Assembly: GCA_963742415.1 (NCBI GenBank)
Contig: CAVULX010000004.1
Location: forward strand, 288,001-352,000
Length of the DNA: 64,000 bases
DNA from: an uncultured Parachlamydiaceae bacterium
GTDB lineage: Bacteria; Chlamydiota; Chlamydiia; Chlamydiales; Parachlamydiaceae
Direction: 5' to 3'
The notes beneath the pieces were generated by a model. It was not told the DNA's origin, ran no database searches, and worked only from the letters and a program-made list of their open reading frames with translations. A program made the translations under genes and the position numbers. Positions 30,218-33,855 of the stretch are shown piece after piece (position 1 is the first letter of the stretch; each line of letters opens with the position of its first letter).

Positions 30218-30961
30218 ATGTGGACGACAGATACGAGCTTTCTTAGGGAATTATCGAATTTATCAAGTAATACCGATTTCACTAGCTTTGACAATATTTT
30301 TGGCAATAATGAGAAAGAACAGGATCGCTATTCTCAAATCTGGGAAGGAGCTTTCAATACGCCGCCAGTTGTTGCTGAAGTTTCGTGTCTTTCCAACCGC
30401 AACATGTTTCCAATCAATGGAACTCAGGGGGAAAATGACGATTATAAAAGAAAAGAGGAAGAAGGCAATCCCTATGTGCTTACAGACAATCAGACTAACT
30501 CGAATCTAAATGAATTGAAGAGTACAAGTGAAAGTAATTCCCACAATTCGGCTCTAAAAGAAGTTAAAATAAATTTGTCGCTAAACCAAAGAAAAAAAAA
30601 TTTATGGACTATAGATGAAGATGAGAAGTTAAAACAAGCAATGGAAAAAAGCCACCCGAGTGGTAGCGTGAGTCAAAGACGTGCAGGGGATTGGAAGAAA
30701 ATAACAGACATTTTCCACGGAAGGCGAACTGTAGCTGCGTGTAAAAAAAGGGGAGAAGTATTAAAACTCAGAGGTGGGACAGAAAAAAAAACGAAACGAA
30801 ATTGGACGGATCAAGAAGATATGAAATTAAAGGTAGCCATGCAATACCACCTTTCAATGAGAAATTCTCAGCTAAAGCAGGAAGAATGGGAAAAGATAGC
30901 AAAAAGTTTAAATCGAACAGTGAGTGCATGTAAAAATAGAGTAACGAAATTGAAATATTAA
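30218..30961 (+). CDS. Myb/SANT-repeat protein 1 (two repeats), candidate effector
   Basis: WTIDEDEKLKQAM...WKKITDIFHGRRTVAACKKR and WTDQEDMKLKVAM...WEKIAKSLNRTVSACKNR; GGAGG RBS. Confidence 0.85.
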   Translation: MWTTDTSFLRELSNLSSNTDFTSFDNIFGNNEKEQDRYSQIWEGAFNTPPVVAEVSCLSNRNMFPINGTQGENDDYKRKEEEGNPYVLTDNQTNSNLNELKSTSESNSHNSALKEVKINLSLNQRKKNLWTIDEDEKLKQAMEKSHPSGSVSQRRAGDWKKITDIFHGRRTVAACKKRGEVLKLRGGTEKKTKRNWTDQEDMKLKVAMQYHLSMRNSQLKQEEWEKIAKSLNRTVSACKNRVTKLKY

Positions 30962-31359
30962 AACTAAAAGCAATTACGTACCTTCAAAGTTCTCTACGCA
31001 TGTAGAAATCCGGTCGGGATCAAATGCAGGGGAAATTATAACGGGGACAAGCAATAATTTCAAAAGAAGCCTCTTGTAAATAGCAGTATGCGTAAAACGC
31101 AAAGGACTCAAAAATAGAAAATTTCATAAAAAGTACGGAATCAGGCTATTCCCATTGTAGGATGTTCTACAGAGAATCACATAGCGATACCATTTTATCC
31201 TTTTTTTTAAATTTAGTATTTTTATAGATTTTTTTTATAAACGTTTAATAAAATGCCAATTCTTATGCCGAAAGTGACTCAAAAATTGGGATTTTGAAGC
31301 GTTCCAAATCGCAATTTTTGAGAAACCTTCGGTATAAATTGGTTTGGAGGATTGGAATT

Positions 31360-32118
31360 ATGGGAGAGGTCAATTTTGGTTTTTCATTTATATCGGCGAC
31401 TGCATCTAATTTCGACTTTGGCAGCGGCAAAGATTGGGACAGTAATAGGGAAATCCCAACCTCAGAAATTTCCCAAATTTGGAATGAATGCGTGGGAAGA
31501 CGTGACGTAGAAACTCCGCTCAACAGCGAACCCCAAATTTTGTCAAATTGTTCCGATTCTGTCCCTTTTACACCATGGAATGGGGATGAACGTCCTCAAC
31601 ATTCTGTCAAACAACTAACAGAGACAGAGCATTCGACCTTCTATACAACTTTTAAGCTGGCTAATACCCGTGCAGGTGAAAGTCATCCAGAAGATGACTT
31701 GGTTGAAAATAAGGTCGAGCAAGATTCGCAGTCAAAAAGAAAAATTTGGACGGAGCAGGAACATAAAAAGCTAGAGCAAGTAATGAAGAAATATGGCCCA
31801 GACAGAGGCAAAATTGGAAGAACTAAAAAACAGTGGAAGAAAATTGCGTGCGAAATGAGGCGCCCCCCAGAAGCGTGTAAAAAAAGGTGGGAAATTTTAA
31901 AAGGACAAAATCCACGGCTAGAAAAAAAACTGAAATCACGAGCTTGGACTCCTCAAGAGGAAAAGGTTTTAAAAACATCTTTGGCATACTTCCATTCACA
32001 TGAAGAGAAAAAACTAACCCAGGTTGAATGGGAAAAAATAGCTATAAGCTTACAGCGCTCGGTTAGTGCCTGTAAAAATAGAACGCAATTATTCAGGCGA
32101 ATAGAAAAAAATTCGTAG
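31360..32118 (+). CDS. Myb/SANT-repeat protein 2 (two repeats), candidate effector
   Basis: WTEQEHKKLEQVMKKYG...WKKIACEMRRPPEACKKRW and WTPQEEKVL...WEKIAISLQRSVSACKNR; ATG at 31360 after GGAGG. Confidence 0.87.
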   Translation: MGEVNFGFSFISATASNFDFGSGKDWDSNREIPTSEISQIWNECVGRRDVETPLNSEPQILSNCSDSVPFTPWNGDERPQHSVKQLTETEHSTFYTTFKLANTRAGESHPEDDLVENKVEQDSQSKRKIWTEQEHKKLEQVMKKYGPDRGKIGRTKKQWKKIACEMRRPPEACKKRWEILKGQNPRLEKKLKSRAWTPQEEKVLKTSLAYFHSHEEKKLTQVEWEKIAISLQRSVSACKNRTQLFRRIEKNS

Positions 32119-32284
32119 CAAAAAGAAAATAACATCAAGCAAAAAAATAGCTTGGAGTTAGATTTTTGAATTCACTTGTGTATAATAATAACCACTGATC
32201 TCACTCTGTGGTTACTAATACTATGTTTTTTTCAGTCTATAATATTCGGCTTTTAAATTACAGACGTTATGGAGGTTTTAGCTT

Positions 32285-33148
32285 ATGTGGCAAGTAAGTT
32301 CAAATTTTGGTTCAGATGTGAATGAGAATATAAATGGTTTACCTAATATTCAAGACCCTTATTGGAAATTAGATTTAGGCCTTTTTGACGAAAAGGGTCG
32401 AGATATTTCTCAAATCTGGAAGGAAGTGATGTATGGGGAGAAGGGAATTACACCTGATGATTGTTCAACGCTCAAGATTGAAGAGGAAAATAATACTGAA
32501 GAGGGACACATAGTCAAAGTAAAGGAAGAGAAGGTTCCAAGCCCTGCAATAGAAAAATGGATCGCCAGCACTCAAGAAAAATATGTCAAATCTCCCTTAG
32601 ACTTTTGTGGAAGCAGCGGAGGTGATTTATCCATAGAAAGTCAAAAACCTTCGGATGTTACTTTAACCAATCAACAGCTTCCAAGCTCTTCGACTAAAAA
32701 AAGGAAAAGGGATAACATAAATCAATCACACAACGCAAAAAGAAAAAAAAGGGGGCATACATCCAGTGCCTCTCCAAACGGCCCCCACGAAACCTGGACT
32801 GATCAAGAAGATAATAAGTTAGCTCAAATCGCTGTAAAATTATTCAACGAAAATTATACACAAAAAATAAAAGAAAATCAGTGGAAATATGTTGCGAAAG
32901 AAATGAATGGGCGCACACAGTCGGCATGTAAGAAGAGATTCACTCATTTAAAAAAGACAAATTCAAAACTAAAAGAAGCCTTACGCATCATTAATTTATT
33001 CACACCAGCAGAAAGAAAGGCCTTGAAAAAAGAGGGTAAAATCCTGATTACAGAAGAAACTGCTAAGTTAGAGTTGGAGCCAATAGGAGTCATGATAATG
33101 AGCAAACAGTATCAAAAAAGATCAGACAATTTCACGCTAAGAATGTAA
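32285..33148 (+). CDS. Myb/SANT-repeat protein 3 with NLS-like clusters, candidate effector
   Basis: WTDQEDNKL...WKYVAKEMNGRTQSACKKRF; KKRKR and KRKKR; degenerate second repeat FTPAERKAL. Confidence 0.85.
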   Translation: MWQVSSNFGSDVNENINGLPNIQDPYWKLDLGLFDEKGRDISQIWKEVMYGEKGITPDDCSTLKIEEENNTEEGHIVKVKEEKVPSPAIEKWIASTQEKYVKSPLDFCGSSGGDLSIESQKPSDVTLTNQQLPSSSTKKRKRDNINQSHNAKRKKRGHTSSASPNGPHETWTDQEDNKLAQIAVKLFNENYTQKIKENQWKYVAKEMNGRTQSACKKRFTHLKKTNSKLKEALRIINLFTPAERKALKKEGKILITEETAKLELEPIGVMIMSKQYQKRSDNFTLRM

Positions 33149-33207
33149 AAAGTACGGATTGGGCTTCAGAGCAGTGTGAATTAAAGACATTTTGGAGGTT
33201 TTAGCTT

Positions 33208-33855
33208 ATGGGGCAAGTGGATTTAAATAGCTTTGAGTGGCTAACTTATTCACAAAATTATGAATCTCTTGAAGGATCTAAGGAAGATTTAAATACTCCT
33301 GACGAAGATATCTGTCGAATCTGGAAAGATGTCATGGATGAAAAGGTTGGCATCGATATTTTATCTTATTGCAAATTAATGCTTGAGGGGGAAAATATAT
33401 CGCCTCTGCGGAATATGGAAGACCCAGTTTTTAAAAAACTAGTCAATCTAGAAGACTTTTTAATGGTTCAAGGCGATGTTAATCTTCGCGCAAATGAAAT
33501 AGACGATTATTTAGGCAAAGGGTTTGCCCATAAGCCAAAAGTTCGCTCAAAAATCAAAAAAGATCTACCTATAAAAAAGAAAACTATACGCAAATGGTCC
33601 AAATTAGAGGAGGAGACGTTACGGACGCTTGCCCTACAAGTGTTCGCAAGGAATGAAAAAAATACAATTTCAGAAGAGCAGATGGATCAAATTAGGCATT
33701 CTTTAAAAGCCATAGGATCGTCACGATCCGATTTAGCATGCCGTGCAAAGCTAGCGAAATTGCTCCACCCTGAACGATCTCAGCTTTATAAAGAACGTGA
33801 AAGAAAGGCTTTTGAAGAAAGACGAAAGCTTGATGCCCTCTCAACCCCTGATTGA
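33208..33855 (+). CDS. Divergent Myb/trihelix-like protein 4, candidate effector
   Basis: KWSKLEEETL...I...L...GSSRSDLACRAKL; shares the N-terminal motif (DICRIWKD) and the ggaggttttagcttATG leader with gene 3. Confidence 0.72.
   Translation: MGQVDLNSFEWLTYSQNYESLEGSKEDLNTPDEDICRIWKDVMDEKVGIDILSYCKLMLEGENISPLRNMEDPVFKKLVNLEDFLMVQGDVNLRANEIDDYLGKGFAHKPKVRSKIKKDLPIKKKTIRKWSKLEEETLRTLALQVFARNEKNTISEEQMDQIRHSLKAIGSSRSDLACRAKLAKLLHPERSQLYKERERKAFEERRKLDALSTPD

Follow-up and report, generated by a model that had tools for sequence, protein, structure and literature searches.

Introduction

Bacterial effectors that act as nucleomodulins or resemble transcription factors include the chlamydial SET-domain protein NUE, AnkA of Anaplasma and the TAL effectors of Xanthomonas, and to our knowledge none of these contains a Myb domain. 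A term search of a review on nucleomodulins (PMC7819608) finds the word Myb only in the title of a reference on the host target MYB30. Here we describe an array of four adjacent genes in a stretch of 64,000 nucleotides from an uncultured Parachlamydiaceae bacterium (assembly GCA_963742415.1, contig CAVULX010000004.1, positions 288,001 to 352,000; hereafter the window). The first three genes encode Myb/SANT-type repeats, the fourth a plausible relative of them, in each case behind an acidic N-terminal half. For their products we propose the same logic as for NUE, AnkA and the TAL effectors: the bacterium would inject a protein that reaches the nucleus of the host, where its target would be chromatin or DNA.

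With respect to the domain, the nearest known proteins are eukaryotic two-repeat Myb proteins such as c-Myb (R2R3), Cdc5/Cef1, SNAPc4 and a Trichomonas Myb protein. Genes 1 to 3 share with them the membership in PF00249 and PF13921, genes 1 and 2 additionally the two adjacent three-helix repeats, along with profile and fold matches and a basic charge. In contrast to these eukaryotic proteins, the window genes are bacterial and preceded by Shine-Dalgarno sites, their N-terminal half matches nothing, and their repeats carry about 9-10 extra residues between helices 1 and 2 and retain the third tryptophan in only one case out of five.

With respect to genome evolution, the F-box/BTB families NEX and PEX of the Parachlamydiaceae are comparable. 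According to the accessible part of PMC4209131, these families are lineage-specific, locally duplicated, built on a eukaryote-type domain and subject to gene birth and death, features in which the array resembles them, and expanded families with eukaryote-like domains in the Parachlamydiaceae carry type III signals that work in a heterologous assay. The word Myb is absent from that paper. Unlike NEX and PEX, which carry ubiquitin-ligase adaptor domains, the array carries a Myb domain, comprises four members next to three other Myb genes of the genome, and encodes proteins whose secretion is putative.

Results

Four intact open reading frames (ORFs) lie adjacent and co-oriented on the plus strand within positions 30218-33855 (ORF list), and each has a GGAGG ribosome-binding site a few bases 5' of its ATG, in agreement with an earlier note on this DNA (Table 1). 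To classify the repeats they encode, we used the Pfam gathering cut-offs, which are 22.9 and 24.4 bits for the two Myb families and 27 bits for the trihelix family PF13837. Gene 1 is matched above cut-off by PF13921 (E = 2e-12) and PF00249 (E = 7.8e-11) with 47.5/42.4 bits, and gene 2 by PF00249 (E = 3.8e-13) and PF13921 (E = 2.7e-10) with 49.8/40.7 bits, both in two stretches. Gene 3 is matched above cut-off in one stretch by PF13921 (E = 2.7e-7) and PF00249 (E = 1.9e-6) with 31.1/28.3 bits; PF13837 reaches 18.2 bits on this protein and thus stays under its cut-off. The Myb motif quoted in the earlier note proved to be real. Aligned with each other, the five repeats of genes 1 to 3 yield the consensus WTxQEDxKLKQ...WKKIA...RTVSACKKR, in which ten positions (W, T, E, L, W, R, A, C, K and R) never vary. 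Myb repeats are characterized by three tryptophan or other aromatic residues spaced about 18-19 residues apart. The first and the second of these tryptophans are invariant in all five repeats, being 28 residues apart in repeat 1 of gene 1.

A single-sequence phmmer search with gene 1 against PDB sequences returned nothing at E <= 0.01, so that a profile of the repeats was needed to obtain PDB matches. This profile matched 42 PDB sequences at E <= 1, with c-Myb in first place (E = 1.7e-9) and Cef1/CDC5L, ZZZ3, SNAPc4, B-Myb, the SANT domain of DNAJC2 and a Trichomonas Myb protein among the others; bacterial regulators are absent from these 42 sequences. Likewise, none of the four proteins has a relevant match at E <= 1 in NCBIfam, which contains the bacterial regulator families. 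The significant Pfam matches are confined to Myb-type families, with bacterial families of the RsfA or GcrA type unmatched at E <= 1. In PHROGs, the phage family phrog_323 (transcription regulators) matches genes 1 and 2 with E-values of 6e-7 and 9e-7 at 30 bits, compared to 47-50 bits for the Myb profiles. Bacterial and phage helix-turn-helix (HTH) regulators (RsfA-type, GcrA, phrog_323) share the three-helix HTH fold with the window proteins, whereas Myb profiles score far higher on them. With Pfam, NCBIfam, PHROGs, the PDB profile search and the structural comparisons described below, bacterial or phage HTH families do not match better than Myb, which supports both the earlier assignment to the eukaryotic Myb/SANT type and our conclusion that the repeats are closer to eukaryotic proteins than to these HTH families. 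Myb identity is well supported for genes 1 to 3 and plausible for gene 4.

Structures were predicted with AlphaFold2 (AF2) for genes 2 and 4. In the gene 2 model, which was built from a 19-row alignment, residues 1-125 show a predicted local distance difference test (pLDDT) score below 50 and no secondary structure, and residues 130-252 fold into two three-helix bundles with a pLDDT mostly above 90. Together with the two Pfam stretches found in each of genes 1 and 2, these bundles bear out the two repeats that had been assigned to both genes. The best structural match of the gene 2 model is the double Myb domain of Cdc5 (Z = 8.2, root mean square deviation (rmsd) 6.9, 101/102 residues, 25% identity). 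Two further proteins match both repeats, namely SNAPc4 (Z = 7.1, 27% identity) and an R2R3 MYB protein (Z = 6.7, 26% identity), and single homeodomains tie on one repeat. Foldseek returned no match at E <= 0.001 for this model (best 0.03), with Cdc5/CDC5L, DUX4, c-Myb and the Trichomonas Myb protein in its top rows. The only prokaryotic rows for the gene 2 model are TnpE (Z = 6.6, 7% identity) and TetR (Foldseek rank 50).

The gene 4 model has an N-terminal half of low confidence, followed by helices at residues 132-148, 156-168 and 175-186 with a pLDDT of 70-85. A homeodomain, GT-1, Zeste and Reb1 all match this model at Z = 6.5-6.8. Hereof, the GT-1 trihelix (2jmw; Z = 6.7, rmsd 3.7, 65 residues, 20% identity) ties with the MATalpha2 homeodomain (Z = 6.8). 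The c-Myb R2 repeat and the DNA-binding domain of GcrA each reach Z = 5.2. All of these fold matches of gene 4 lie under the discriminating level, so that the trihelix-like type proposed in the earlier note is one candidate among several three-helix folds.

Judged by BLAST, genes 1 and 2 are clear paralogs (36% identity over 242 aa, E = 1e-24). Gene 3 resembles these two in the Myb repeat alone (E = 1e-6 to 9e-6). With gene 4, BLAST recovers none of the other three at E < 0.01 and Pfam returns neither a Myb family at E <= 1 nor a match to PF13837, and a methionine replaces the second tryptophan of its domain. Several weak lines nevertheless agree in suggesting that it is a paralog of genes 1 to 3. 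Its residues 128-183 align to the repeat profile (hhalign E = 9.3e-5, probability 59%), the three helices described above are predicted to form a bundle, and among 18,027 ORFs of the genome it is the best non-member match of the gene 1-3 profile (E = 0.0057). Moreover, a block of 26 nt comprising the ribosome-binding site, spacer and first codons of gene 3 (32270-32295) recurs at 33193-33218 before gene 4 with one degenerate position; this block matches twice in the window against 0 expected from 100 shuffles. Genes 3 and 4 additionally have the motif DI(S/C)(Q/R)IWK(E/D)VM near residue 35-45 in common (E = 0.001). The description of the array as four paralogs is thus firm for genes 1 and 2, extends to gene 3 through the repeat and reaches gene 4 only by these weaker profile and start-block lines. 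For gene 3, the earlier note had proposed one repeat plus a degenerate second one. The single repeat is confirmed by Pfam, but of a second one there is only a trace: the tail NLFTPAERKALKK can be aligned with the first helix of the repeat at an hhalign probability of 2.5% (E = 0.019).

The four proteins share a bipolar charge distribution. Their N-terminal parts carry a net charge of -7 to -13 at an isoelectric point (pI) of 4.1-4.7 (gene 1: 4.7), whereas the C-terminal parts carry +13 to +20 at a pI of 10.1-10.2 (gene 1: 10.1). The acidic half comprises about 105-135 residues. In genes 2 and 4, for which models exist, it is predicted to be disordered, and by comparison with gene 2 the N-terminal part of gene 1 is probably disordered as well. 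The summed content of Ser, Thr, Asn and Gln in the N-terminal parts is 39, 33 and 27% in genes 1 to 3 compared to 18% in gene 4. Hence, of the acidic, Ser/Asn-rich half that had been ascribed to each protein, the acidic character applies to all four and the Ser/Asn-rich composition fits gene 4 poorly. The first 25 residues contain 7-12 Ser, Thr or Asn (genome mean 4.4), which corresponds to the 84th-99th percentile of 1,533 ORFs. Pattern matching finds a bipartite sequence resembling a nuclear localisation signal (NLS), KKRKR-x10-KRKKR, in gene 3; in genes 1 and 2 it finds K-K-x-K cores, which lie between the two repeats. An N-terminal profile built from all four members finds only these members. 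As a separate candidate, a conserved N-terminal 'delivery module' was considered and rejected as a shared domain, since leave-one-out profiles miss the left-out member.

Outside the window, the family could not be traced. A profile of genes 1 and 2 finds no relative in 72 other genomes of the same family, a word-index homologue search with gene 1 returned gene 1 itself only, and no relative emerged when 185,579 species genomes and the viral contigs were scanned by pattern. Among 1.84 billion representative proteins, 84 are matched at E <= 0.001, with only the window's own two below 1e-30. The best non-self matches (E = 2.9e-21) are long Myb proteins with many repeats, up to eight of which add to the score. 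Ten of the nearest non-self proteins were checked and comprise one transcript of the chrysophyte Paraphysomonas, three entries named 'hypothetical protein' and six without a name. The N-terminal parts match nothing elsewhere. Apart from its Myb repeats the family is, as judged by these searches, an orphan. Together with the paralogy of genes 1 and 2, the start block of genes 3 and 4 and the lack of a relative in the 72 genomes, this supports the local expansion already put forward in the earlier note and marks it as lineage-specific.

The Myb domain as such has a wider, patchy distribution. PF00249 is found in 9 of 41 close relatives at E <= 0.001. At E <= 1e-4 it occurs in 18 of 401 chlamydial genomes across the phylum, i.e. 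in 10 of the 45 genomes of the window's family versus 7 of 355 elsewhere, and in none of 14 control genomes. Myb genes are present in 11 of 46 genomes of one chlamydial family, this genome included. The genome under study contains three further Myb genes outside the array. A Myb protein of 302 aa with four repeats (PF00249, E = 1.6e-28) is encoded at about 202.2-203.1 kb of contig C3, and a tandem Myb pair of 168 and 161 aa lies on the minus strand of the same contig at about 887 kb.

Comparable arrays exist in two related genomes. In G076 (contig C3, 72000-84000), eight Myb genes of 114-280 aa lie on one strand with one unrelated gene interposed; six of them are matched by PF00249 and two more by the repeat profile of the window. 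In G067 (contig C1, 1210500-1229500), eight co-oriented genes encode 2-14 canonical c-Myb-like repeats, the longest product having 825 aa. Like the array in the window, both consist of tandem, co-oriented Myb genes. Each of the two has a polar N-terminus of its own that is conserved among its members. In contrast, likeness to the window proteins is found only in the repeats, at 25-40% identity, the N-terminal parts are unrelated, and the G067 repeats are joined by LNPxIKxGxWT linkers, which the window genes lack. Myb arrays have thus formed recurrently and independently in related genomes. The members of the G076 array share an S-x-SFS-x-Q-like N-terminal motif and have KRQK basic clusters, and all eight G067 genes begin with the near-identical sequence MNIGISN(H/P)Y. 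Further tandem Myb-like pairs with polar or acidic N-terminal halves are found in G034 (C1), which belongs to another chlamydial family, and in G010 (C2, about 1004-1005 kb; a 202-aa gene and its neighbour).

Full-text literature searches yielded no publication on chlamydial Myb proteins or Myb arrays. In the accessible part of PMC10579323, on clostridial endosymbionts, a single sentence attributes Myb-like transcription factors to eukaryotes as well as to clades such as Legionella and Chlamydiota. One G076 member is automatically annotated as 'SANT/Myb domain-containing protein', and others are named 'hypothetical protein'. The idea that such an array is new for chlamydiae therefore stands with respect to published descriptions, but has to be qualified in view of the G076 and G067 arrays, that annotation and that one sentence.

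The window is part of a 1.34-Mb contig in a genome of 2.69 Mb and four contigs. The genome encodes the chlamydial histone-like protein Hc1 (E = 1.3e-18), four TLC nucleotide transporters and two FHIPEP export-gate genes of the SctV/FlhA type (E = 1e-253 and 3e-217); FHIPEP was the sole component by which the type III secretion system was judged. Because of Hc1, the four TLC transporters and SctV, the genome is chlamydial and possesses a type III export gate, in line with the earlier interpretation. The genes surrounding the array are ordinary bacterial ones (GlpD-like, ABC transporter, Na:alanine symporter, thioredoxin-like). It is flanked by a divergent gene of 306 aa and by the symporter gene. 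In relatives G010, G004 and G013 the order of the thioredoxin-like, DTW and symporter genes is kept, and the synteny comparison shows no Myb gene beyond the symporter in these three. The 306-aa gene has a hydrophobic N-terminus and no Pfam match. Its family occurs in 22 of 26 related genomes, with three copies in this genome and 12 partly tandem matches in G031, and because it is multi-copy it cannot serve as synteny anchor. The GC content over 30001-34000 is 0.367-0.371, the lowest two bins of the window, with an AT skew of about +0.2. No gene fragments were found in the four intergenic stretches of the array. Among sequencing runs, none of RNA is listed for this DNA, and one DNA run shares a small part (0.07) of its words.

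The frame of gene 2 is open from a TTG codon upstream of the ATG. Due to the GGAGG upstream of the ATG and the stored gene call P0002, which has 252 aa, the ATG is most likely the real start. The TTG extension overlaps a small palindromic, self-complementary repeat of about 85 bp, which recurs at three other places of the genome with 76-85% identity (C4 at about 828.2 kb, C3 at about 196.2 kb and about 510.0 kb). Similar blocks of about 45 nt precede both gene 1 and gene 2 and are, judged from the alignment, candidates for a duplicated promoter region. A consensus sigma-70 scan found no plus-strand promoter-like site in the upstream blocks of genes 1 and 2; in total it counted 10 promoter-like sites where 10.9 were expected, and on the plus strand before the genes no useful one. 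Directly 3' of gene 4 lies a palindromic dispersed repeat whose outer hairpins, followed by T-runs, look like bidirectional terminators. This repeat is found at 35 loci of the genome (26 of at least 150 bp) with 85-95% identity.

Table 1. Position of the array, its parts and further features in the window.
Feature	Position	Strand	Details
ORF	25579-26277	-	232 aa; no Pfam match at thresholds used
ORF	26793-27641	+	282 aa; no Pfam match at thresholds used
Flanking gene	29171-30091	-	306 aa; divergent to array
Upstream block of gene 1	30118-30170	+	contains TTAAATTTAGTATTTTT; similar block at about 31193-31244 before gene 2; alignment
Gene 1	30218-30961	+	247 aa; acidic N-terminal part aa 1-126; GGAGG 6 nt 5' of ATG
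Gene 1 Myb repeats	30596-30772; 30794-30958	+	aa 127-185; aa 193-247; Pfam
Self-complementary repeat, about 85 bp	31256-31342		upstream of gene 2
Gene 2	31360-32118	+	252 aa from ATG 31360; frame open from TTG 31294 (274 aa)
Gene 2 Myb repeats	31738-31908; 31936-32103	+	Pfam, AF2
Gene 3	32285-33148	+	287 aa; acidic N-terminal part
Gene 3 Myb repeat	32786-32959	+	aa 168-225
Gene 3 further parts			bipartite NLS-like sequence aa 138-156; helical tail with trace of second repeat
Gene 4	33208-33855	+	215 aa; acidic N-terminal part; basic stretch aa 108-129
Gene 4 Myb-like domain	33586-33771	+	aa 127-188; one divergent three-helix domain, followed by long C-terminal helix
Palindromic dispersed repeat, about 215 bp	33921-34140	.	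outer hairpins 33941-33953 (+) and 34119-34107 (-)
Na:alanine symporter gene	34260-35597	-	flanks array
Further copy of about 215-bp repeat	36256-36441		two Rfam Acido-Lenti-1 matches: 36303-36348 (+), 57.9 bits; 36355-36400 (-), 37.1 bits
ORF	40409-41773	+	454 aa; no Pfam match at thresholds used
ORF	41760-44615	-	951 aa; no Pfam match at thresholds used
Further copy of about 215-bp repeat	55109-55301		
Further copy of about 215-bp repeat	63724-63859		

Discussion

The best explanation for the array, which in our estimate has about an even chance of being correct, is that the four proteins are injected effectors that would act as DNA-binding proteins in the host nucleus. In such a mechanism, the unstructured, Ser/Thr/Asn-rich N-terminus would serve as type III secretion signal, by which the proteins would be translocated into a protist host. 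The basic clusters before and between the repeats would then act as nuclear localisation signals, and the Myb module would bind host DNA or compete with host Myb factors. The acidic region may represent an activation or interaction domain. We base this reading on the eukaryote-type domain, the predicted disorder of the N-terminal half (genes 2 and 4), the acidic N-terminal parts with their Ser/Thr/Asn-rich N-termini, the basic clusters, the patchy and family-enriched distribution of the domain and its repeated independent expansions. The orphan status of the family, the unmatched N-terminal part, the non-syntenic neighbourhood in three relatives and the GC content of 0.37 are likewise counted as signs of effector-like evolution. 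A genome typical of a host-associated chlamydia with an injection system (Hc1, TLC transporters, FHIPEP) and the precedent of the Parachlamydiaceae families with working type III signals (PMC4209131) also speak in favour.

Several observations weigh against this explanation. Among the five repeats, repeat 1 of gene 2 alone retains the third signature tryptophan of Myb domains, and the spacing between helix 1 and helix 2 is about 9-10 residues longer than in c-Myb; due to both deviations, DNA binding cannot be assumed. The structural Z-scores, which do not exceed 8.2, fail to separate Myb domains from homeodomains. NLS-like motifs are unspecific, as basic clusters are expected in any DNA-binding protein, and the basic run of gene 4 does not match the simple NLS patterns used. 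The N-terminal composition is only weakly indicative of secretion, leave-one-out profiles built on the first 75 residues fail in every case to find the omitted member, and no chaperone gene adjoins the array. Finally, chlamydiae also use eukaryote-like chromatin proteins inside the bacterium, namely Hc1, which is present here, and SWIB-domain proteins.

This last point leads to the main rival explanation, according to which the proteins are internal nucleoid-associated proteins or transcription regulators of the chlamydial chromosome. The basic Myb part with its pI of about 10, the Hc1 gene in the same genome and the lack of both a signal peptide and an adjacent chaperone would all be in line with such a role. 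Moreover, the phrog_323 matches of genes 1 and 2 imply that Myb-like domains do act on prokaryotic DNA, and among the control genomes PF00249 finds a match in B. subtilis. A core regulator, however, should hardly be missing from all 72 other genomes searched in this family or belong to a domain class as patchy as 18 of 401 genomes. In addition, no bacterial regulator family of NCBIfam matches at E <= 1, and the long acidic disordered half as well as the rapid local duplication fit effectors better. We thus consider an internal function unlikely, but still more probable than the explanations that follow.

Slightly less probable is that the proteins are indeed injected, but contact other proteins in the manner of SANT domains, i.e. 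histone tails, chromatin-modifying complexes or the RNA-processing machinery, instead of binding DNA in a sequence-specific manner. The Myb repeats of Cdc5/Cef1 act in the spliceosome, and Cdc5/Cef1 is the best structural and second-best sequence match of the array; ZZZ3 and the SANT domain of DNAJC2 match as well. The loss of the third tryptophan in four of five repeats and the long loop between helices 1 and 2 point in the same direction. On the other hand, the DNA-binding domain of c-Myb is the top sequence match, and the repeats are strongly basic with a net charge of +13 to +20. A strongly basic charge is typical of DNA-binding Myb domains, an acidic one of SANT domains.

We find it improbable that the genes are decaying or functionless remnants of DNA acquired from a eukaryotic host or prey. 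An orphan family, the lower GC content of the locus, the high divergence of gene 4 and the dispersed palindromic repeats flanking the array could be expected of such remnants. Yet none of the four frames is broken, a strong GGAGG precedes each of them, the intergenic stretches hold no gene fragments, the core residues are invariant in five repeats, and AF2 predicts confident domains. Eukaryotic contamination of the assembly, for which only the eukaryotic type of the domain speaks, can practically be dismissed, as the array lies inside a 1.34-Mb contig amid ordinary bacterial genes and has Shine-Dalgarno sites and no introns.

Returning to injected, nuclear DNA-binding effectors, a more far-reaching version of this explanation can be formulated, which we consider tentative and rather doubtful. 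Environmental chlamydiae would inject sequence-specific transcription factors of the Myb type into protist hosts, with the acidic N-terminal half serving as both secretion signal and activation domain, and the arrays that expanded independently in several genera (the window, G076 and G067) would record an arms race over the control of host gene expression. Irrespective of this, it appears reasonable, by analogy, to place the locus among the candidate effector families with eukaryotic-like domains of environmental chlamydiae, within which it stands out by its domain type and by the recurrence of arrays.

Should the proteins act on the bacterial chromosome instead, they would be further examples, next to Hc1 and SWIB, of chromatin proteins of eukaryotic character that chlamydiae have adopted. 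Injection into the host together with binding to its DNA would make them the first bacterial effectors based on the Myb fold, and a direct means of studying the reprogramming of amoebae or other protist hosts by environmental chlamydiae. Injected Myb-type transcription factors would, moreover, constitute a bacterial counterpart of the TAL effectors, made from a domain borrowed from eukaryotes. As Myb genes and arrays recur in one chlamydial family, the question reaches beyond the window described here.

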